A stretch of DNA of 64,000 nucleotides from Burkholderiales bacterium (GCA_014860395.1 JACZJU010000102.1:808-64807); one strand, 5' to 3'. Counted from the stretch's first letter, positions 5,207-62,420 are shown. Translations and numbers: made by a program. The notes: generated from the sequence alone by a model not told the origin.

Positions 5207-6388
5207 TTACGCGCGCTCGAACACCGCCGCGATGCCCTGACCGCCGCCGATGCACATGGTCACCAGCGCATAGCGGCCACCGCAGCGCTGCAGTTCGTGT
5301 AGCGCCTTGACTGTCAGCAGGCAGCCGGTGGCGCCGATGGGATGCCCCAGCGCCACGGCGCCGCCGTTGGGGTTGGTCTTCGTCGGGTCGAACTGCAGAT
5401 CCTTGGCCACGGCGCAGGCCTGGGCTGCGAACGCCTCGTTGGATTCGACCACGTCCATGTCGCTCACCTTGAGCTTGGCGCGCGCGAGCGCCGACTGCAC
5501 CGCGAGCACCGGGCCGATACCCATGTATTTGGGATCGACGCCAGCATGCCCGTAGGCGAGCAGCCGCGCCATCGGCTTCAGGCCTTGCTTCGCAGCGGCT
5601 GCGGCCTCCATCAGCACCACCGCCGCCGCGCCGTCGTTGATGCCGGAGGCGTTGCCGGCAGTGACCGAGCCGTCTTTCTTGAACACAGTCTTGAGCTTAG
5701 CCATGCCTTCCATGCTCGCATCGGCGCGCGGGTGCTCGTCGGTATCGAACACGGTCACGCCCTTGCGCGTCTTGAGTTCGATCGGCAGGATCTGCTCCTT
5801 GAAGTAGCCCTTTTGAATCGCGTTGATTGCGCGGCGGTGGCTTTCCACCGCGAATTCGTCCTGCTGTTGGCGTGTGATGCTCCATCTCGCGGCAACGTTC
5901 TCGGCGGTGATGCCCATGTGCACGGTGTCGAAGGGGTCGGTGAGCGCCCCCACCATCATGTCCACCGTGCCGCCGTCGCCCATGCGCTGGCCCCAGCGCA
6001 GTGTCGGCATCAGGTAGCCGCCGCGGCTCATCGATTCCGCTCCGCCCGCAAGCGCGATATCGGCATCGCCCAGCAGGATCGCCTGCGCGGCGCTGACGAT
6101 CGCCTGCATGCCGCTGCCGCACAGGCGGTTGAGCGTCATTGCCGGCGTGTGGTGGGCGAGGCCGGCATCGATCATGGCGACGCGCGACAGGTACATGTCC
6201 CTGGGTTCGGTATGGATGACGTGGCCGAACACCACGTGGCCGACGTCTTTCGGATCGATTTTGGCGCGCGCAACCGCTTCGCGCGCGACTTTGGCCGCGA
6301 GTTCGGTCGGCGCAATGTCTTTGAGCGCGCCGCCGTAATCACCGATTGCGGTGCGCACACCGCTTACTACCACGACTTGTCTGCTCAT
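5207..6388 (-). CDS. Acetyl-CoA C-acetyltransferase (thiolase II)
   Basis: MSRQVVVVSGVRTAIGDYGG N-terminus with AGGAG upstream of the ATG at 6388. Active-site regions NRLCGSGMQA, NEAFAAQ and GHPIGATGC ... CIGGGQGIA. Confidence 0.93.
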   Translation of the reverse strand: MSRQVVVVSGVRTAIGDYGGALKDIAPTELAAKVAREAVARAKIDPKDVGHVVFGHVIHTEPRDMYLSRVAMIDAGLAHHTPAMTLNRLCGSGMQAIVSAAQAILLGDADIALAGGAESMSRGGYLMPTLRWGQRMGDGGTVDMMVGALTDPFDTVHMGITAENVAARWSITRQQQDEFAVESHRRAINAIQKGYFKEQILPIELKTRKGVTVFDTDEHPRADASMEGMAKLKTVFKKDGSVTAGNASGINDGAAAVVLMEAAAAAKQGLKPMARLLAYGHAGVDPKYMGIGPVLAVQSALARAKLKVSDMDVVESNEAFAAQACAVAKDLQFDPTKTNPNGGAVALGHPIGATGCLLTVKALHELQRCGGRYALVTMCIGGGQGIAAVFERA

Positions 6389-6875
6389 CTGCGTTCTCCT
6401 TGATAGTGCGCGGCACGCCGCTGTGCCCGCGCAGGCAATGATGCCGTCGGACAATGTTACGCCCTTTGCGTCAGGTCAAAGCGTCTTGCAGAAATTCGGT
6501 GCGCGGTAAGACAAGACCAACCGAAAGCGGACGAGTTCAAGGGAGAGGGCGGACCTGGACGAAGTTGAGCGCGCGGAATTCCCCCGGGTCGGGCGCGCTG
6601 TCATCGTTCTGTAACACCGCTGGTGGCAGACTATTATCTGTGCAGACAGGAAAAACGCCGGCAGATCGCCGACTTGCGCGGCCGCAGCGAAGTTTTGCAC
6701 AGGCATATCCACAGATTTTGTGGGTAATTTCCCGTGAGTCGAGGTTTGCGCGATGTAGTGCGCGACACGGCTGCCGTGAAAATTTCACGCTGTCCGATTG
6801 CGGCGGGCGAATTGAGCTGTTCTGTCACGCAGCAGATCAAGACTGAAGCCAGACAATAAGTGATAGGGAGGGGCA

Positions 6876-7121
6876 ATGAAGGAGATGAGGGTCACCGGCG
6901 CTCAACAGAAGGTTCTGCAAATCCTTTCGCGCAAGGATATTTCCGCTATACGCAGAAATCCCAAGCTCGTCGCCGGCGCGAAGCACTTGCTGCTCGCATG
7001 CAAGAAGGCAATCAGGAAAGTGGAAGGGATTCCGCAGTACGCCTCGCGCAAGAAGCGTGAGACGGCGTACCGGCACATCGTCGCCATTTGCCGCAAGGCG
7101 ATAGACGAAGCCGAGCGTTAG
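6876..7121 (+). CDS. Hypothetical small basic protein (81 aa)
   Basis: GGGAGGGG Shine-Dalgarno 5 nt before the ATG. No recognisable family. Lies in a lower-GC gene-poor islet. Confidence 0.45.
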   Translation: MKEMRVTGAQQKVLQILSRKDISAIRRNPKLVAGAKHLLLACKKAIRKVEGIPQYASRKKRETAYRHIVAICRKAIDEAER

Positions 7122-7290
7122 CACGATTTCATTCTGAAAACACTGACGAGAACAAAGTACGGCGCAGAGTCAGAGACAATTCACATTTCCGTCAAAGCAC
7201 TGTCACTTTTCACCTCTATTGTGGGCATCTTGCGGCAGACCTGATCCGGACTGCCTTTGGATATCACAATCTGTAGAGGAGAATTTGATC

Positions 7291-7611
7291 ATGACCGACC
7301 AGAAGAGGGCTGTTCCGGCCGCCGACCGCGCGGATCGGAGCGCGCGGCCGACCGAGCTCAGACAAACCATCGCCGCCGTCATTGCCGTGACCCGGCGCGA
7401 GTGGATTTCACAAATGCCAGCGATGCCTGCACCCGAAGAAACCGCGCTCAAGCGCGCCCGGTTCGCGCACCCATTGGTCAGATATATTTTTGATTCCAAG
7501 CGCAACAGTTCCTGGCGCGCGCGGGTAGGGCGGCAGGGGCGCAAGCAAAGCGCGGAACGGTTTGCAGACCCGGATTGTGCGCCGGGGCGGCGCAGGCTGG
7601 AGCCTGTTTGA
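7291..7611 (+). CDS. Hypothetical protein (106 aa), weak AP2-like DNA-binding motif
   Basis: GAGGAG is 8 nt before the ATG at 7291 (inside ORF track 7219..7611). Segment VRYIFDSKRNSSWRARVGRQGRKQSAERF resembles the first half of a bacterial AP2 domain. The stop codon lies in REP-like copy E. Confidence 0.35.
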   Translation: MTDQKRAVPAADRADRSARPTELRQTIAAVIAVTRREWISQMPAMPAPEETALKRARFAHPLVRYIFDSKRNSSWRARVGRQGRKQSAERFADPDCAPGRRRLEPV

Positions 7612-7640
7612 AAATGAGGGCATATCCTTCCCTCATGGCC
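7601..7640 (+). repeat. REP-like hairpin element, copy E (degenerate)
   Basis: gcctgtttgaaaatgagggcatatccttccctcatgg aligns with copy A (gcctatttcaaaatgaggggatacatcccctcacg). Lies between convergent genes. Confidence 0.45.
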
Positions 7641-56598: not shown

Positions 56599-57426
56599 AT
56601 GAAGTTCATTCACCGCCTCGAACAGGCGTGGGCCGCGCAGCGCTCGCTCTTGTGCGTGGGCCTGGATCCGGATCCCGCGCGCCTGCCCGGGCAGCTCTCC
56701 AGTTTCGCGCATCCCATATTCGAATTCGGCCGCGCGATCGTCGATGCGACCGCCGATCTGGTGTGCGCGTTCAAGCCGCAGATCGCCTACTATGCGGCAG
56801 CGCGCGCCGAAGACCAGCTGGAAATGACCATCTCTCACATCCGCCGGCACTATCCGGCGATACCCGTGATTCTCGATGCCAAGCGCGGCGACGTGGGCAG
56901 CACGGCCGAGATGTATGCGCGCGAAGCGTTCGAGCGCTACCAGGCCGACGCCGTTACCGTGAATCCGTATCTCGGCTTCGATTCGCTGCAGCCGTTCCTG
57001 GATCACGAGAACAAGGGCGTGATCGTGCTCTGCCGCACGTCCAACCCCGGCGCCCGCGATGTGCAGGACATCGCCAGCGACGGCAGGAAGCTGTATCAGC
57101 TTATCGCCGAAAAAGCGGCGCGCGATTGGAATGCCAACGACAACGTGCTGCTGGTGGTGGGCGCGACCTATCCGCAGGAGCTGCGCGAGATCCGCGCCAT
57201 CGTCGGCGACATGCCCATCCTCGTGCCCGGCGTCGGCGCGCAGGGCGGGGACGTGGCCGCAGTGCTGGCGAACGGCGCCACCGCGGACGGCACCGGACTC
57301 CTCATCAGCAGCTCGCGCGCCGTGCTCTACGCCGGCAGCGGCGCCGATTACGCCCAGGCTGCCAGGGCGGCGGCCCTGAAGCTGCGCGACGAAATCAACC
57401 TCTGCCGTAAATTTCAAGGTGCCTGA
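56599..57426 (+). CDS. pyrF: Orotidine 5'-phosphate decarboxylase, type 2
   Basis: [47 protein letters not shown] at 56599 (GTG at 56590 is possible). Confidence 0.92.
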
Positions 57427-57513
57427 CGGTATTTCCGTCAGGCGGCAAATTTAGGGGAGCACGAGGGGCTAAGGAAGGGGGCGGGACCCTTCCTTTCCCG
57501 CCCGGTCCCCTCG
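57421..57513 (-). repeat. REP-like hairpin element, copy C (inverted orientation, with nested extra hairpin)
   Basis: Hairpin GCCTGACGG-tattt-CCGTCAGGC contains the pyrF stop. Then AAATTTAGGGGAGCACGAGGGG, the reverse complement of the CCCCTCGTGCTCCCCTAAA core of copy B. Closing CCCCTCG at 57507-57513. Confidence 0.6.
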
Positions 57514-57532
57514 CATCGTATAGGACATCGCG

Positions 57533-58105
57533 ATGAAGCAGGAAGACCTCACCGAGCACGAAACTGGCAGCGAAACCGTGTTCCAGGGCAAGCTGCTGCA
57601 GGTCAAATGCGATACCGTCAGACTGCCCGACGGCAAGGCGGCGACGCGCGAGTACGTCGAGCACAACGGCGCGGTGATGGTCATTCCGGTGCTCGATTCG
57701 GGCGAGCTGGTGATGGAACGCCAGTACCGCTACGTCATGCGCCGGCATTGCATTGAGTTCCCGGCGGGCAAAATCGACCCCGGCGAGGAGCCGCTCGCGA
57801 CCGCGCGACGCGAACTGCTGGAGGAGACCGGCTATGTCGCCGGCGAATGGATCTACCTCACCACCATCCATCCGACCGTGGCCTATTCCACCGAGCGCAT
57901 CCTGGTCTATCTCGCGCGCGGCCTCGAGCACCGCGGCAGCAAGCTCGACGAAGGCGAGTTCCTCGAAGTGTTCAAGCTCGCGCCCGAGGCGCTGCTCGAG
58001 CTGGTGCGCTCGGGCGAAATCAGCGACGTGAAGACGGCGATGGGCGCGTTGTGGCTGGAGAAGCTGCTGCGCGGCGAGTGGGCGGCCGGGCCCGCTTTGT
58101 CCTAG
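57533..58105 (+). CDS. NUDIX hydrolase, ADP-ribose pyrophosphatase-like
   Basis: Nudix box GKIDPGEEPLATARRELLEETG. 190 aa. NudF-like N-terminal beta domain (VFQGKLLQVKCDTVRLPDG). Confidence 0.88.
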   Translation: MKQEDLTEHETGSETVFQGKLLQVKCDTVRLPDGKAATREYVEHNGAVMVIPVLDSGELVMERQYRYVMRRHCIEFPAGKIDPGEEPLATARRELLEETGYVAGEWIYLTTIHPTVAYSTERILVYLARGLEHRGSKLDEGEFLEVFKLAPEALLELVRSGEISDVKTAMGALWLEKLLRGEWAAGPALS

Positions 58106-58122
58106 TCGGAGGGAGGCAAGAT

Positions 58123-58656
58123 ATGAATTGCCTGATGACGGCCTGGCATGAACACGAAGCCGAATTGCGTGGCTGGCTGCGGCACCGGATGGGGAACGCT
58201 GTCGACGCCGAGGACTTGCTGCAGGATGTGTTTATCAAGGCCATGCGCCAGGGCGAGCGCTTCTGCGCGATCGTCGATGCGCGCGCCTGGCTGTTCGAGG
58301 TGGCGCGCAACGCGCTTGCCGACCGTCTTCGACTCAAGCGCACCACAGTGGAACTGCCCGAAGACCTGAGCGCCGAGACCGAGGAGGCGGCCGCGGTCGA
58401 CAGCCTCGCGGCCTGCCTTCCGCGCGTGCTCTCCGAGCTGAGTCCGGAGGACAGGGAGGCGATCACCCTGTGCGATCTGCAGGGTCTGCGGCAGGAAGAA
58501 TACGCGCGCCGCAAGGGTCTGAGCCTGCCCGGGGCGAAGTCGCGCGTGCAGCGCGCGCGCAAGCGGCTGCGTGAACGGCTTACGCAAGCCTGCCAAGTCC
58601 GCCTGGATGCGGACGGGCAGGTGAGCGATTTCGTGCCGCGCCCGCCGATCGCCTGA
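58123..58656 (+). CDS. ECF-type sigma-70 family RNA polymerase sigma factor (SigZ-like, no adjacent anti-sigma)
   Basis: GGAGGGAGG before the ATG at 58123. Region 2 DAEDLLQDVFIKAM...AWLFEVARNALADRLR. Region 4 LSPEDREAITLCDLQGLRQEEYARRKGLSLPGAKSRVQRARKRLRE. Confidence 0.88.
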   Translation: MNCLMTAWHEHEAELRGWLRHRMGNAVDAEDLLQDVFIKAMRQGERFCAIVDARAWLFEVARNALADRLRLKRTTVELPEDLSAETEEAAAVDSLAACLPRVLSELSPEDREAITLCDLQGLRQEEYARRKGLSLPGAKSRVQRARKRLRERLTQACQVRLDADGQVSDFVPRPPIA

Positions 58657-58664
58657 GCGCAATA

Positions 58665-59072
58665 TTAGAGATTCGCCGAAAGCGTCGCGATAATCGGGCA
58701 TGAGCGCGGGCGCTTACCATCGGCGCATTGCGCAATCAGCCCCCGGAGCGATCGGCGCATGCGCATCAGGTCGGTGATGCGCCTTTCGATCAGACCCAGC
58801 TTGCGCTCGGCAAGCAAGCGCGTCTCCCGGCAGCTTTGACCGTCCTCCAGCAGCAACAGCTCCTTGATTTCCTCCAGCGTGAAGCCGAGCTGTTGCGCGC
58901 GCTTGATGAAGCGCACGCGCGTCGCCGCCGAGGCCGAGTAGCGCCGCTGTCCGCCCAAGGGCCTGGACGGCTCATCCAGCAGCCCGCGCCGCTGGTAGTA
59001 ACGTATGGTTTCGACGTTCACGTCCGCCGCCTTGGCGACGCCACCGATGCTGGGTTGCGCGTTTAATTTCAT
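58665..59072 (-). CDS. merR: MerR-family Hg(II)-type metalloregulator
   Basis: 135 aa from the ATG at 59072. HTH IGGVAKAADVNVETIRYYQRRGLL. Cys81/Cys116/Cys125 have the same spacing as the Hg-ligand Cys82/117/126 of Tn501 MerR. LEDGQSC and SCPII match MerR LEDGTHC and SCPLI. Confidence 0.9.
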   Translation of the reverse strand: MKLNAQPSIGGVAKAADVNVETIRYYQRRGLLDEPSRPLGGQRRYSASAATRVRFIKRAQQLGFTLEEIKELLLLEDGQSCRETRLLAERKLGLIERRITDLMRMRRSLRGLIAQCADGKRPRSCPIIATLSANL

Positions 59073-59076
59073 CCCC

Positions 59077-59108
59077 TTGACTCCGTACCATGGTACGGAG
59101 TCTATGCT
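59077..59108 (+). promoter_or_regulatory. mer-type operator/promoter (MerR dyad inside an over-long -35/-10 spacer)
   Basis: TTGACT (59077-82); perfect dyad CTCCGTAC-catg-GTACGGAG (59081-59100); TATGCT (59103-08), giving a 19-20 bp spacer. Nearly identical to the Tn501/Tn21 merOP core TCCGTAC-N4-GTACGGA. Confidence 0.88.
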
Positions 59109-59214
59109 ACTCCTGTCGCCGGAAAACCAGTGGAGGCACTGTGAATTCATCGAAGGCAAAGGCCGCGTTGATCGCCGGGATGCCCGTCGGCATCGACGCG
59201 CCATAAGATCCAAA

Positions 59215-59433
59215 ATGAGCGCCGTCGTCCTCGAATCCGTGCTGACCTGCCCGCATTGCGGCTACGCCAGGCTGGAAACCATGCCTACGGACGCCTGCCA
59301 GTTCTTCTACGAATGTGGCGGTTGTGGCGCGCTGCTGCGTCCCAGGCCCGGCGACTGCTGTGTTTTCTGTTCGTTCGGCTCGGTCAAATGCCCGCCGATT
59401 CAGCAGCATGGCGCTTGCTGCGGCCCGGGCTAG
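59215..59433 (+). CDS. GDCCVxC-domain cysteine-rich miniprotein (72 aa)
   Basis: MSAVVLESVLTCPHCGYARLETMPTDACQFFYECGGCGALLRPRPGDCCVFCSFGSVKCPPIQQHGACCGPG has 13 Cys, including CPHC, CGGC and GDCCVFC. First gene downstream of the mer promoter. Confidence 0.8.
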   Translation: MSAVVLESVLTCPHCGYARLETMPTDACQFFYECGGCGALLRPRPGDCCVFCSFGSVKCPPIQQHGACCGPG

Positions 59434-59523
59434 CCCAGGCTGCATCCTTTCGCGCCGTCGTTCGTCTTCACTGGTAAGGGCGCAATCTGTGCCCATGCTA
59501 GGGATGACGAAGGAAATACGCCC

Positions 59524-60570
59524 ATGGACGCGGTTTTTGCCCCACTGCGGCGCTGGCCCAGCCAGCAACCGCTGCTGTTCCTGATTCTGGCCATCTCGGC
59601 TTGGTTCGGCCTTTACCTGCTCCTGGCGCCGGCCGCCGAGGCATTGGTGGCCGCGTTGCCGGTGGAACGCGACAGCCACCTCGGCGGCGCCCTTCAATTC
59701 TTCTTCTACGACACGCCCAAGGTGCTGCTGCTCTTGACCGGCATCGTGTTCGTGATGGGGATGGTCAACTCCTACTTCACGCCGGAACGCACGCGCGCCT
59801 TGCTTGCCGGGCGCACCGAGGGCGCGGCCAATGTTATGGCGGCCAGCCTGGGCATCGTCACGCCATTTTGCTCGTGCTCGGCAGTGCCACTTTTCATCGG
59901 TTTCGTGCAGGCGGGCGTGCCGCTGGGCGTGACCTTTTCCTTCCTGATTTCGGCGCCCATGGTCAATGAAGTCGCGCTCACGCTGCTGTTCGCGATGTTC
60001 GGCTGGAATGTCGCGCTTCTCTACCTCGGCCTGGGCCTGACGGTGGCCATCGTCGCCGGCTGGGTGATCGGCCGACTGAAAATGGAAGCCCATTTGGAGG
60101 ACTGGGTGCGCGATATGCCGCATACCGCCGCAGCCGTCGGCGAGGACAGGCTCAGCCTCGGCGAGCGTCTCGACGCCGGCTTCACTTCGGTGCGCGAGAT
60201 CGTGGGCAAGGTCTGGCCCTACATCCTCGGCGGCATCGCCATAGGCGCCGGCATACACGGCTATGTGCCGCAGGATTTCATGGCGTCGTTCATGGGCAAG
60301 GATGCGTGGTGGGCGGTGCCGCTGGCGGTGGTGATCGGCGTGCCCATGTACACCAACGCTGCAGGCGTGATTCCGATCGTGCAGGCGCTGCTCGCCAAGG
60401 GCGCGGCGCTGGGCACGGTGCTCGCGTTCATGATGAGCGTGATCGCGCTGTCGCTGCCCGAGATGGTAATCCTGCGCAAGGTGCTGAAAATGCGCTTAAT
60501 TGCCACGTTTGTCGGCGTGGTTGCCACGGGCATCCTGCTCGTCGGTTACGTATTCAATGCTGTTCTCTAA
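59524..60570 (+). CDS. UPF0718/ArsP-like permease with vicinal-Cys motif
   Basis: 348 aa, ~8-10 TM. FFFYDTPKVLLLL and GIVTPFCSCSAVPLFIGF motifs. Internal two-fold repeat (second half PMYTNAAGVIPIVQALL). Confidence 0.8.
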   Translation: MDAVFAPLRRWPSQQPLLFLILAISAWFGLYLLLAPAAEALVAALPVERDSHLGGALQFFFYDTPKVLLLLTGIVFVMGMVNSYFTPERTRALLAGRTEGAANVMAASLGIVTPFCSCSAVPLFIGFVQAGVPLGVTFSFLISAPMVNEVALTLLFAMFGWNVALLYLGLGLTVAIVAGWVIGRLKMEAHLEDWVRDMPHTAAAVGEDRLSLGERLDAGFTSVREIVGKVWPYILGGIAIGAGIHGYVPQDFMASFMGKDAWWAVPLAVVIGVPMYTNAAGVIPIVQALLAKGAALGTVLAFMMSVIALSLPEMVILRKVLKMRLIATFVGVVATGILLVGYVFNAVL

Positions 60571-60584
60571 TGCGGGGAACGAGA

Positions 60585-60645
60585 CGAGGGGACATATCCC
60601 CTCGTGCTCCCCTAAACCAGGCGCCTAACGAAAATCGTCAGGCGC
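60585..60645 (+). repeat. REP-like hairpin element, copy B
   Basis: Hairpin CGAGGGGA-cata-TCCCCTCG, tail TGCTCCCCTAAACCAGG, and second hairpin GCGCCTAACG-aaaat-CGTCAGGCGC. Lies between the permease and thioredoxin-fold genes. Confidence 0.6.
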
Positions 60646-60669
60646 TCTAAATCAACCAAGGAGTTTTCC

Positions 60670-60909
60670 ATGAAAGAAGTCAAGGTGCTTGGAAGCGGTT
60701 GCGCCAACTGCCGTACCACTGCGGCGCTGATCGAGGAAGTGGCACAGGCCAAGGGCGTTGCCGTCACTATGCAAAAAGTCGAGGAACCACGCGAGATCGT
60801 CGGCTACGGCGTGATGTCCACGCCGGGCGTAGTGATAGACGGCAAGGTCGTGCATGCAGGCGGCGTGCCCAGCCGCGACAAAATCGCGGGATGGTTTTCC
60901 GCCGTGTAA
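60670..60909 (+). CDS. Thioredoxin-fold protein (redox-active disulfide protein 2 / MTH895-type)
   Basis: 79 aa, MKEVKVLGSGCANCRTT (CxxC) ... STPGVVIDGKVVHAGGVPS. AAGGAG before the ATG. Confidence 0.85.
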   Translation: MKEVKVLGSGCANCRTTAALIEEVAQAKGVAVTMQKVEEPREIVGYGVMSTPGVVIDGKVVHAGGVPSRDKIAGWFSAV

Positions 60910-61019
60910 ACTGTCGACTCCCGTCGAAATAGGGCGGTTCTGCCGGCCCCCCTTCTTCGACAACCTGCTAACATTTGCCGGATACGCTCCTACCCTCAAC
61001 GTAAACGGCTGATTTGCCC

Positions 61020-62420
61020 ATGGAGTCCAAGCACCGCGCCCGCCTGAAAGCCATCATCGATGCGCTGGAAAGCGGATTGGTGGAACGCCGCCAGAGCGTG
61101 CGGCTATGCCTGCTCTGTGCCCTGGCCGGCGAGCACACGCTGCTCATCGGTCCCCCTGGCACGGCAAAAAGCGAACTGGCGCGGCGTCTGCATACGGTTT
61201 TTCGCGACGCTCGCTACTTCGAGCGCCTGCTGACCCGCTTCTCGGTGCCGGAGGAGTTGTTTGGCCCGCTGTCGATCCAGGCGCTGGAGCAGGACCGCTA
61301 CGAGCGGCATACCGACGGATTCCTGCCCGATGCCTCGATTGCGTTCATAGACGAGGTGTTCAAGGCCAACAGCGCCATACTCAATGCGTTGCTTACGCTG
61401 CTCAACGAGCGCGAATTCGACAACGGCGCCGGCCGCCAGCGCTGCCCCCTGATCAGCGCCATCGGCGCTACCAACGAGGTGCCGGAAGACGAGGTCGCCG
61501 ACGCCTTCTTCGACCGCTTCCTGGTGCGCCTGCCGGTCGCCGCAGTCAGCGCGGCGGGCTTCGGTGCGCTGCTCGAGGTCGGCCTAGACTGCGGTTGGAC
61601 GCCGCTGCCGGCGGGCCTGGCTTTGGACAAGAACGATCGCACCGTGCTTGCGGACGCGGCGACCGCGGTTGAGGTTCCAGCCGCGCTGGTCGCGGTGCTG
61701 GCCGAACTGCGCCAGCACTTCGCTGCCGAGAGAATCCATGTATCCGACCGTCGCTGGGTGAAGATCGTCTGGCTGCTGCGCGTCGCCGCGGCGAGCGAAG
61801 GCAGATCGGCTGTCGCGCTGTGGGACCTGCTTTTGCTTCCCTGGGTCACCGGGCCCGATGCGGCGCGCCAGGCGGCTGTGGCCGACTGGCTCTCTGCCCG
61901 GCTCGGGGTGCGCGAAACATATTCGCCCGAACGCCTGACGCGGGTAGTCGAGGCCTTTGAGGCGCAGCTCGATGCCGAACTGAATGCGAACGATCTGGAT
62001 TACGACGAATTCGGTCGCTTGCGCTTCTCCGCGGCCGAGTTGGCGGAACAAGTTGGCGACGCCAAGCAAGGCGCAGCCGCCCCGCGCATGACCTACAAAC
62101 GCAACCGCCGCTACGGCAGGACGCATATCGACGCCCGTGTCGGCCAGATCGACGCATTGCTCGCGCGCATTGCGGACTACGCTAGCGAAATCTCCACGCA
62201 GCGGGAAAGCCTCGCCGCCTACCGGGCGCAGAGCTTGTGGCTGGATGAGAGTCTGACCGGGCGCGCCGCCGCAGTTCTGGCTGCCACGGGTGCCGCAATT
62301 GACGGTTTGGCCGAGCGCGCGCGATCGGCGCGGGAAGGTTTCCTCGATCTGCCGCGCCTGCAGCAGGACGACGGCATGGTGCCGGAACCCGTTGTTCACG
62401 AGGCGCTCGCCGAAACTTGA
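61020..62420 (+). CDS. ravA: MoxR-class AAA+ ATPase, RavA-like
   Basis: Aligns by eye with E. coli RavA. LESGLVERRQSVRLCLLCALAGEHTLLIGPPGTAKSELARRL (Walker A), FIDEVFKANSAILNALLTLLNEREF (Walker B), HVSDRRWVKIVWLLRVAAASEGRSAV. Confidence 0.88.
   Translation: MESKHRARLKAIIDALESGLVERRQSVRLCLLCALAGEHTLLIGPPGTAKSELARRLHTVFRDARYFERLLTRFSVPEELFGPLSIQALEQDRYERHTDGFLPDASIAFIDEVFKANSAILNALLTLLNEREFDNGAGRQRCPLISAIGATNEVPEDEVADAFFDRFLVRLPVAAVSAAGFGALLEVGLDCGWTPLPAGLALDKNDRTVLADAATAVEVPAALVAVLAELRQHFAAERIHVSDRRWVKIVWLLRVAAASEGRSAVALWDLLLLPWVTGPDAARQAAVADWLSARLGVRETYSPERLTRVVEAFEAQLDAELNANDLDYDEFGRLRFSAAELAEQVGDAKQGAAAPRMTYKRNRRYGRTHIDARVGQIDALLARIADYASEISTQRESLAAYRAQSLWLDESLTGRAAAVLAATGAAIDGLAERARSAREGFLDLPRLQQDDGMVPEPVVHEALAET

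Follow-up and report, generated by a model that had tools for sequence, protein, structure and literature searches.

A pared-down mer cassette in front of a sigZ-exporter operon suggests a two-module metal-resistance locus in one Burkholderiales lineage

We analyzed a 64-kb stretch of DNA from a Burkholderiales metagenome-assembled genome, referred to here as the window; all gene absences reported below apply to these 64 kb. Near its 3′ end, a preliminary description made from the sequence had placed a mercury-type merR gene and its operator in front of three cargo genes, encoding a small GDCCVxC protein, a permease and a thioredoxin-fold protein, and had treated the three as one coherent MerR-controlled set. 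The four-gene combination is real, yet it is not one ancestral unit. We lean towards reading the locus as a lineage-specific chimera of two independent modules, a sigZ/exporter operon and a decayed mer cassette. We came to this reading from the identities of the genes, the boundaries of an insertion, a remnant of merT, a conserved promoter motif and signatures of purifying selection. The merT remnant, the sigZ gene and a conserved promoter of the extracytoplasmic function (ECF) type had gone unmentioned before, and they change the interpretation of the locus.

The merR gene lies on the minus strand at positions 58668 to 59072 and encodes a Hg(II)-type MerR activator of 135 amino acids. Its product scored 158.2 bits against the TIGR02051 equivalog model (cut-off, 150.85) and aligned with Tn501 MerR over its length without a gap (54% identity by BLASTP), such that C81, C116 and C125 fell on the Tn501 Hg ligands C82, C117 and C126. 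The proposal that this is a mercury-type MerR with its three ligand cysteines at the Tn501 spacing was therefore borne out. The divergent mer operator/promoter occupies positions 59077 to 59108 on the plus strand. Its TTGACT element (59077 to 59082) starts four bases from the merR start and is separated by 20 bp from TATGCT (59103 to 59108). A spacer of either 19 or 20 bp had been suggested; the 20-bp version stands, and the 19-bp alternative gives a poorer −10 element, CTATGC. A scan for sigma-70 promoters missed the mer promoter because of this long spacer and otherwise returned nothing notable. The dyad reported within the promoter is indeed perfect and forms a 24-bp palindrome of 12+12 bases, GACTCCGTACCA/TGGTACGGAGTC, at positions 59079 to 59102. 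It is 100% conserved in contig L173, a relative of the window that is described below, and the operator element TTGACTCCGTAC-N4-GTACGG also lies 5′ of merT in merRTP-GDCCVxC loci of other species. MerR and its operator are thus of the ordinary Hg-MerR kind, and from their sequences we predict activation by Hg(II).

Downstream of the promoter, at positions 59215 to 59433 on the plus strand, lies the gene for the GDCCVxC-family miniprotein. The length given for it previously, 72 amino acids, was correct, but it has 11 cysteines, not 13. It scored 106.4 bits against the NF041374 profile (cut-off, 40), carries the signature G46-D-C-C-V-F-C52 and has no hydrophobic segment, and nine of its cysteines were invariant in 30 homologues. 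An AlphaFold2 model reached a predicted local distance difference test score (pLDDT) of 69, with an N-terminal half resembling a zinc ribbon. Foldseek found no match to this model in the PDB with an E value below 1, and a PDB sequence search with the family profile gave weak zinc-ribbon matches only, with E values of at least 0.065. We also considered kinship with the cysteine-rich C terminus of the Tn501 DUF3330 protein and found no evident similarity. The family is large, comprising more than 5,400 clusters at 90% identity, and is conserved at 70 to 80% identity across Pseudomonas, Paraburkholderia, Rhizobium and Acidobacteria; an exact-sequence contig look-up with the window protein returned no match. 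In the literature searched, no paper named GDCCVxC, in keeping with the earlier statement that no functional description was known, and the family is not described in a selenoprotein preprint (10.1101/2022.07.06.499078). The product is most likely a Hg(II)-induced, cytosolic, thiol-rich metal-binding protein.

Two plus-strand genes follow. The first (59524 to 60570) encodes a 348-residue permease of the ArsP family, as had been proposed. It matched PF03773 (ArsP_1) with 259.6 bits over residues 52 to 345 and stayed below the equivalog cut-offs for SaoE (127.9 bits versus 325) and SO_0444 (106.1 bits versus 300). Its only cysteines, C116 and C118, lie in the sequence TPFCSCS and were invariant in 80 homologues; a conserved cysteine pair in the membrane is reportedly of functional importance in ArsP. 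The second gene (60670 to 60909) encodes the predicted CxxC thioredoxin-fold protein of 79 amino acids, with the active-site sequence C11-A-N-C14. It belongs to the MTH895/ArsE family, matching TIGR00412 (87.5 bits; cut-off, 62), PF13192 (95.9 bits) and, in the PDB, MtH895 itself (1ILO; E = 6.7e-9), and its CxxC motif was invariant among homologues. Each of the three cargo proteins therefore matched a named profile (NF041374, PF03773 or TIGR00412).

To place the permease in context, we collected 80 metagenomic loci whose permeases are 74 to 93% identical to that of the window. The thioredoxin gene lies directly 3′ of the permease gene in about 65 of them, essentially all of those whose contigs extend far enough, and MerR adjoins the permease in none of the 80. 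Among the 64 loci with at least 700 nt of sequence upstream of the permease, arsR, arsC or acr3 was found within 2.5 kb in 22; other recurrent neighbors were CDF, OsmC, rhodanese and DUF2798 genes. The permease-thioredoxin pair is thus an independent, widespread unit that is often embedded in ars clusters. Experiments have shown that ArsP of Campylobacter jejuni is an efflux permease for trivalent organoarsenicals (PMC6205960), and ArsP-ArsE pairs have been reported from ArsR operons that respond to arsenic by induction (bioRxiv 10.1101/2022.10.17.512643). We found no paper linking DUF318 with MerR in the literature searched.

In the window, a gene immediately upstream of the region described so far encodes an ECF sigma factor of the SigZ type (58123 to 58656, plus strand; 177 amino acids; TIGR02959, 172.1 bits against a cut-off of 168.65). 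In 28 of the 64 eligible loci, a homologous sigma gene precedes the permease gene by 50 to 150 nt in the same orientation. Five cysteines (C3, C48, C98, C117 and C157) were conserved in 31 sigma factor homologues, and no anti-sigma gene adjoins sigZ. Promoters of the ECF type consist of a −35-like block followed by CGTC, and a motif of that form, TGCATCCTTT-N11-TCGTCT, lies on the plus strand at positions 59441 to 59467. It starts 8 nt past the GDCCVxC stop codon and is unique within the 64 kb. The consensus between sigZ and the permease gene is GC(A/G)TC(C)TTT-N11-(T/C)CGTCT; 22 of the 31 intergenic sequences (30 loci plus the window) carry the strict motif, 19 of these 22 with a spacing of 21, and near-variants were seen in the rest. 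Within each locus the motif is confined to the sigZ-permease gap, counting both strands. We infer that the motif is recognized by this SigZ-type sigma factor, which would then be the ancestral regulatory partner of the permease-thioredoxin pair, and the main role of the pair would be to export a thiophilic metal or metalloid under the control of sigZ. The literature searched contained no paper linking SigZ with ArsP or arsenic and no experimental link between SigZ and ArsP/ArsE.

Comparison with two sister contigs, L087 and L088, bears on how the two sets of genes came to lie together. Both contigs share the order pyrF-nudix-sigZ-permease-trx with the window at 82 to 86% nucleotide identity. 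By blastn and MAFFT alignment, they are homologous to the window up to the sigZ stop codon (58656) and again from about 59432 to 59438 onward, with 20 to 28 nt between these points in the sister contigs, so that the window is about 778 bases longer. The block they lack, positions 58657 to 59434, contains exactly merR, the operator/promoter, a leader with the merT remnant, and the GDCCVxC gene. Because sigZ-permease adjacency spans many divergent loci, an insertion into the window lineage is the parsimonious explanation. The only repeat flanking the block was one of 10 nt that does not fit the junctions, and there was no transposase. With sigZ and the permease gene, both syntenic with L087 and L088, as its flanks, the cassette gives no sign of carriage by a Tn3-family transposon, and the assignment of the locus to the chromosome, outside any transposon context, held up. 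The idea that the cargo forms a coherent three-gene set did not: the permease-thioredoxin pair stands by itself, normally preceded by a sigZ gene and an ECF-type promoter and with no adjacent MerR at any of the 80 homologous loci, and the cassette was inserted in front of it.

The leader between the mer promoter and the GDCCVxC gene proved to contain what is left of merT. At positions 59133 to 59206 (plus strand), a GGAGG ribosome-binding site is followed by a GTG start codon at 59141 and about 21 codons. The 100-nt leader aligns with the intact merT 5′ ends of five GDCCVxC loci (L033, L045, L051, L009 and L019), and its ribosome-binding site and start codon coincide with theirs. The similarity continues up to ...GGCATCG(A/G)CGC, encoding AIGA, and thus ends before the CC motif of MerT; past these codons, the window sequence jumps to about 10 to 25 nt before the GDCCVxC start. 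Since the leader is a truncated merT, the cassette represents a merR/merT-merP-GDCCVxC operon that has lost the 3′ part of merT together with merP. The end point of the deletion is common to the window and to contigs L167 and L173, and among these three the remaining leader open reading frame is not conserved at the protein level. The same genes have been lost elsewhere, as two Pseudomonas genomes (L001 and L015) carry independent merTP deletions that left MerP fragments. When we searched the window by tblastn with MerA, MerT, MerP, MerD and MerE of Tn501 and MerT and MerP of Tn5563, we found no other mer gene; the best stray match (E = 0.009) was a fragment with a flavin adenine dinucleotide motif. 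The reported absence of a mercuric reductase from the 64 kb was thereby upheld, and the statement that merT, merP and merA are missing from the cargo is right for intact genes and wrong with regard to the merT remnant of about 21 codons.

An operon of this kind is also found on plasmids. The plasmid-borne MerR proteins closest to that of the window (57%) are encoded on Tn3-family transposons of the Tn5563 type, which have the gene order merR/merT-merP-GDCCVxC and no merA. These elements have been termed merRTP, defective or partial, with their fourth gene unmentioned (PMC4785139; PMC4447125). With Tn5563a, which carries merTP in the absence of merA, the mercury minimum inhibitory concentration fell in six strains and rose in two (PMC4447125). 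Judging from these values, uptake of mercury by a cell lacking the reductase is harmful, and the loss of merT and merP from the cassette makes sense on that account.

We looked across 80 species-level genome loci of GDCCVxC to determine which genes accompany it. The gene was 3′ of merT-merP in 29 of the 80, with a divergent merR detected in 24 of these 29; six further loci had a partial merT or merP, and one had merR alone. The remaining 44 had no detectable mer neighbor, and there the gene sits behind diverse genes, including those for Acr3, RND and P-type ATPase transporters. Clustering of the neighbors at the 80 loci yielded no recurrent partners beyond MerR, MerT and MerP. Within 6 kb of the merRTP-GDCCVxC loci, there was no MerA-type reductase, apart from two weak matches of 31 to 32% identity.

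Individual GDCCVxC loci showed further features. In Noviherbaspirillum (L059, positions 6280 to 7626), a gene for a pyridine nucleotide-disulfide oxidoreductase of 448 amino acids lies 70 nt 3′ of GDCCVxC in a merRTP-GDCCVxC operon; the protein has a CxxxxC active site and is 32% identical to MerA, with neither an NmerA domain nor the CC pair at the C terminus. Four orphan GDCCVxC genes (L011, L016, L020 and L036; start at about 6001) are preceded by a −10-like box, TA(C/T)ATAAT, 10 to 15 nt before the start codon, which suggests that they have their own promoter and a leader that is very short or absent. On the Methylocapsa plasmid pRX1 (L082, 3873 to 4911), a reductase-less merR/merT(-merP) module ends in a gene for an AhpD-like carboxymuconolactone decarboxylase with a CxxC motif, and a gene of this kind likewise takes the GDCCVxC position on pMOL30 of C. 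metallidurans (L083, 2905 to 3923). Small thiol proteins may be interchangeable accessories of merTP modules. In an uncultured betaproteobacterium (L044, 3780 to 6207), genes for a TehB-like methyltransferase, a Trx_3 protein, an ArsP permease (78% identical) and GDCCVxC follow one another, and MerR was not detected at this locus. On IncP-6 KPC plasmids and other clinical plasmids, RefSeq records place the GDCCVxC gene between tnpA and merP of Tn5563-type transposons (L081, 4053 to 4265; L084, 3957 to 4265; L085, 5077 to 5286).

The arrangement of the window recurs in a small clade. The order nuoN-pyrF-nudix-sigZ-merR-GDCCVxC-permease-trx was found in contigs L167 to L172, whose GDCCVxC proteins are 94% identical to that of the window, and in L173 and L174 (83% identical). 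As L167 to L174 share the junctions of the block and the end point of the merT deletion, a single event older than the clade accounts for all of them. In L173 (4656 to 4860) and L174, merR is a pseudogene that lacks about 200 bp of its interior, and GDCCVxC is still under constraint. The ratio of nonsynonymous to synonymous substitution rates (dN/dS) was 0.04 to 0.15 for GDCCVxC and 0.15 for merR (window versus L167), compared with 0.10 to 0.18 for neighboring genes; dS for GDCCVxC and merR was 0.57 to 0.73. The cassette has thus evolved under purifying selection.

We then considered whether transcripts from the mer promoter could extend into the exporter genes. A terminator scan detected no canonical intrinsic terminator between the GDCCVxC gene and the permease gene. 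RNA folding and a palindrome search identified a GC-rich hairpin across the GDCCVxC stop codon (59420 to 59444, plus strand), followed by AUCCUUUC, that does not satisfy the rule of the terminator scan. Transcripts started at the mer promoter may plausibly continue into the permease gene, although this hairpin might weakly attenuate them.

We propose the following model. The first module would consist of sigZ, the ECF-type promoter, the ArsP-family permease and the ArsE-type thioredoxin-fold protein. Transcribed from this promoter by means of the SigZ-type sigma factor with its five cysteines, it would export a thiophilic metal or metalloid species by way of the Cys-X-Cys pair in the membrane, with the small CxxC protein acting as the cytosolic thiol partner of the permease. 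The second module, merR with the mer operator, truncated merT and the GDCCVxC gene, would be a pared-down version of the reductase-less merR/merT-merP-GDCCVxC operon from which a single deletion took the Hg(II) uptake genes, and which, in one Burkholderiales lineage, came to lie downstream of the sigZ stop codon and ahead of the sigma-dependent promoter. Cytosolic Hg(II) would be bound by C81, C116 and C125 of MerR, which would realign the over-spaced promoter and so activate it. The cytosolic, cysteine-rich GDCCVxC protein would then be made and would bind, buffer or pass on Hg(II) or another thiophilic metal, probably at its second cysteine cluster (C28, C48, C49, C52 and C59), with C12, C15, C34 and C37 forming a structural ribbon. 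Because no canonical terminator follows the GDCCVxC gene, part of the MerR-driven transcripts may run into the permease and thioredoxin genes and add mercury inducibility to an exporter that meanwhile keeps its own sigma-dependent promoter. The metal specificity of each protein and the direction of transport are, like read-through, predicted.

The four genes might instead be a dedicated MerR-controlled operon in which the GDCCVxC protein captures Hg(II) or another soft metal, the CxxC thioredoxin relays it by thiol exchange and the CSC permease exports it unreduced. We consider this doubtful. The gene order is kept throughout the clade (L167 to L174) and purifying selection acts on all four genes, but merR has decayed in L173 while the rest was kept. 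Transcription could cross from GDCCVxC to the permease in the absence of a canonical terminator, yet there is a hairpin at this junction, and the permease retains a conserved ECF-type promoter and a sigZ gene of its own. By our estimate, GDCCVxC lies near an ArsP-thioredoxin pair in about 6% of permease loci, against about 0.1% expected at random; MerR, on the other hand, adjoins the permease in none of the 80 close homologues. Finally, the cassette is an insertion relative to the sister contigs and was derived from a merTP operon. Two modules at one site are thus likelier than a single MerR-driven thiol relay.

More doubtful still is the idea that the GDCCVxC protein is a small zinc-ribbon regulatory or redox protein (a MerD-like modulator of MerR, a metallochaperone delivering Hg(II) to a reductase elsewhere, or a factor repairing mercury-damaged thiols) and that its adjacency to an exporter is incidental. 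Its N-terminal half does resemble a four-cysteine zinc ribbon and the NCBIfam name "(seleno)protein" suggests a redox-active site, but a chain of 72 residues with nine invariant cysteines, two of them forming a vicinal CC, fits direct binding of a soft metal. The gene has the post-merP position typical of accessory genes, and yet three lineages (those of the window clade, L001 and L015) independently kept it after losing merTP. Tn5563a, related copies of which contain the gene, left most hosts unprotected against Hg(II) (PMC4447125), and in L059 a disulfide oxidoreductase gene is directly 3′ of GDCCVxC; against a reductase as partner, none of the MerA type lies within 6 kb of the merRTP-GDCCVxC loci, the two weak matches aside. 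That the merR-GDCCVxC block is decaying mer debris with no present function is very improbable. The truncation of merT, the disappearance of merP, the internal deletions of merR in L173 and L174 and a leader open reading frame that differs as a protein between the window, L167 and L173 all look like decay, but every contig has an intact GDCCVxC gene, the operator palindrome shows perfect conservation, and the dN/dS values of GDCCVxC and merR match those of neighboring housekeeping-type genes. We rejected this explanation on the strength of those values.

Some findings weigh against the two-module reading that we favor, or against parts of it. With no detectable mer neighbor at 44 of the 80 loci, GDCCVxC is not strictly mercury specific. 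Since merR is deleted in L173 and L174 while GDCCVxC is conserved, the miniprotein can be useful without an adjacent MerR. The structure prediction for GDCCVxC is only moderate (pLDDT, 69) and yielded no informative structural match. The junction hairpin could block read-through altogether. Lastly, GDCCVxC lies within 3 kb of ArsP-thioredoxin pairs in other arrangements at five loci (L044, L078, L116, L139 and L142), which could reflect a real functional link.

The locus does not overturn the current understanding of mercury resistance. It amounts to a natural experiment: the uptake genes were deleted, and purifying selection has preserved the sensor and the miniprotein, which now stand before an exporter of the thiol type. 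It draws attention to a small, uncharacterized cysteine-rich family that regularly forms part of reductase-less mer modules under MerR control and whose Tn5563 copies ride on clinical KPC plasmids under the label "defective merRTP" in the literature. A second regulatory unit also comes to light, in which a SigZ-type sigma factor with five cysteines accompanies a conserved promoter that is predicted to drive ArsP/ArsE in arsenic islands. Found in the window and in L087 to L166, and often in arsR-arsC-acr3 islands, this sigma factor and its motif may constitute an undescribed thiol- or metalloid-responsive sigma regulon. Both points could refine the annotation of metal-resistance islands. A bolder idea, which we regard as a long shot, is that GDCCVxC proteins are overlooked, widespread cytosolic handlers of Hg(II) and other soft metals in cells lacking mercuric reductase, and that here the loss of merTP and the transcriptional fusion with ArsP/ArsE produced a reductase-independent, thiol-mediated efflux induced by mercury or organomercurials. 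If true, such an efflux pathway would be one undescribed for bacterial mercury resistance.

The surroundings of the locus contain a few other elements. Between nudix and sigZ, L087 (676 to 3550) has about 1.9 kb more than the window (57532 to 58656), and positions 58123 to 58311 of the window, the 5′ part of sigZ, match L087 twice, which suggests a partial duplication of this part of sigZ in L087. The gap between the permease and thioredoxin genes holds a structured insert of 78 nt (60572 to 60649, plus strand) with a very stable fold of two hairpins (−45.6 kcal/mol; z = −5.1) and no U-tract; it occurs once in the window and is missing from L087, L088, L167 and L173. An Rfam search of positions 57400 to 61200 gave nothing significant. 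Directly downstream of the thioredoxin gene lies a gene for a bpMoxR AAA ATPase (PF20030; 61014 to 62420), which in the syntenic contig L173 (6860 to 9885) is accompanied by one for a VWA protein. Both belong to a MoxR-vWA ternary system that seems to have no connection with the metal genes.

We compared the two halves of the locus with known systems. With the ArsP-ArsE pairs of arsenic operons, the exporter half shares the Pfam ArsP_1 permease with its membrane Cys-X-Cys pair, the Thioredoxin_3/TIGR00412 gene directly 3′ and the frequent co-location with arsR, arsC and acr3. Unlike in those pairs, the upstream gene in this permease subfamily is usually a SigZ-type ECF sigma factor gene (28 of 64 loci) and not arsR. 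C. jejuni ArsP is an efflux permease for methylarsenite and roxarsone(III); the window additionally has a MerR cassette in front. The exporter half thus belongs with the ArsP/ArsE systems and is unusual in having a sigma factor as its regulator. The regulator has the sigma-70 r2/r4 architecture of SigZ-type ECF sigma factors (TIGR02959), and may be compared with cysteine-containing ECF sigma factors that lack an anti-sigma factor, such as CorE of Myxococcus.

The canonical mer operon of Tn501 and Tn21, merRTPAD(E), shares with the cassette the three ligand cysteines, the divergent merR and an operator with a 7-4-7 dyad over an over-spaced promoter. It differs in its 19-bp spacer (20 bp in the window) and in having merA, merP, merD, merE and a complete merT, of which the window has the merT remnant only, and the first intact gene of the window cassette encodes a cytosolic cysteine-rich protein. 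With merA absent from the 64 kb and neither merT nor merP intact, the locus is not a canonical mer operon. The module derived from Tn5563/Tn5044 is closer. Like the window, it has a divergent Hg-type merR and no merA, the operator core TTGA(C/T)TCCGTAC-N4-GTACGG is common to both, and GDCCVxC is the last gene of the operon, its product 80% identical to the window protein. Unlike it, the window cassette has lost merP and all but about 21 codons of merT, is chromosomal, lies upstream of an exporter operon and has neither transposase nor inverted repeats. The window cassette is thus a derivative of the merR/merT-merP-GDCCVxC module rather than a member of it.

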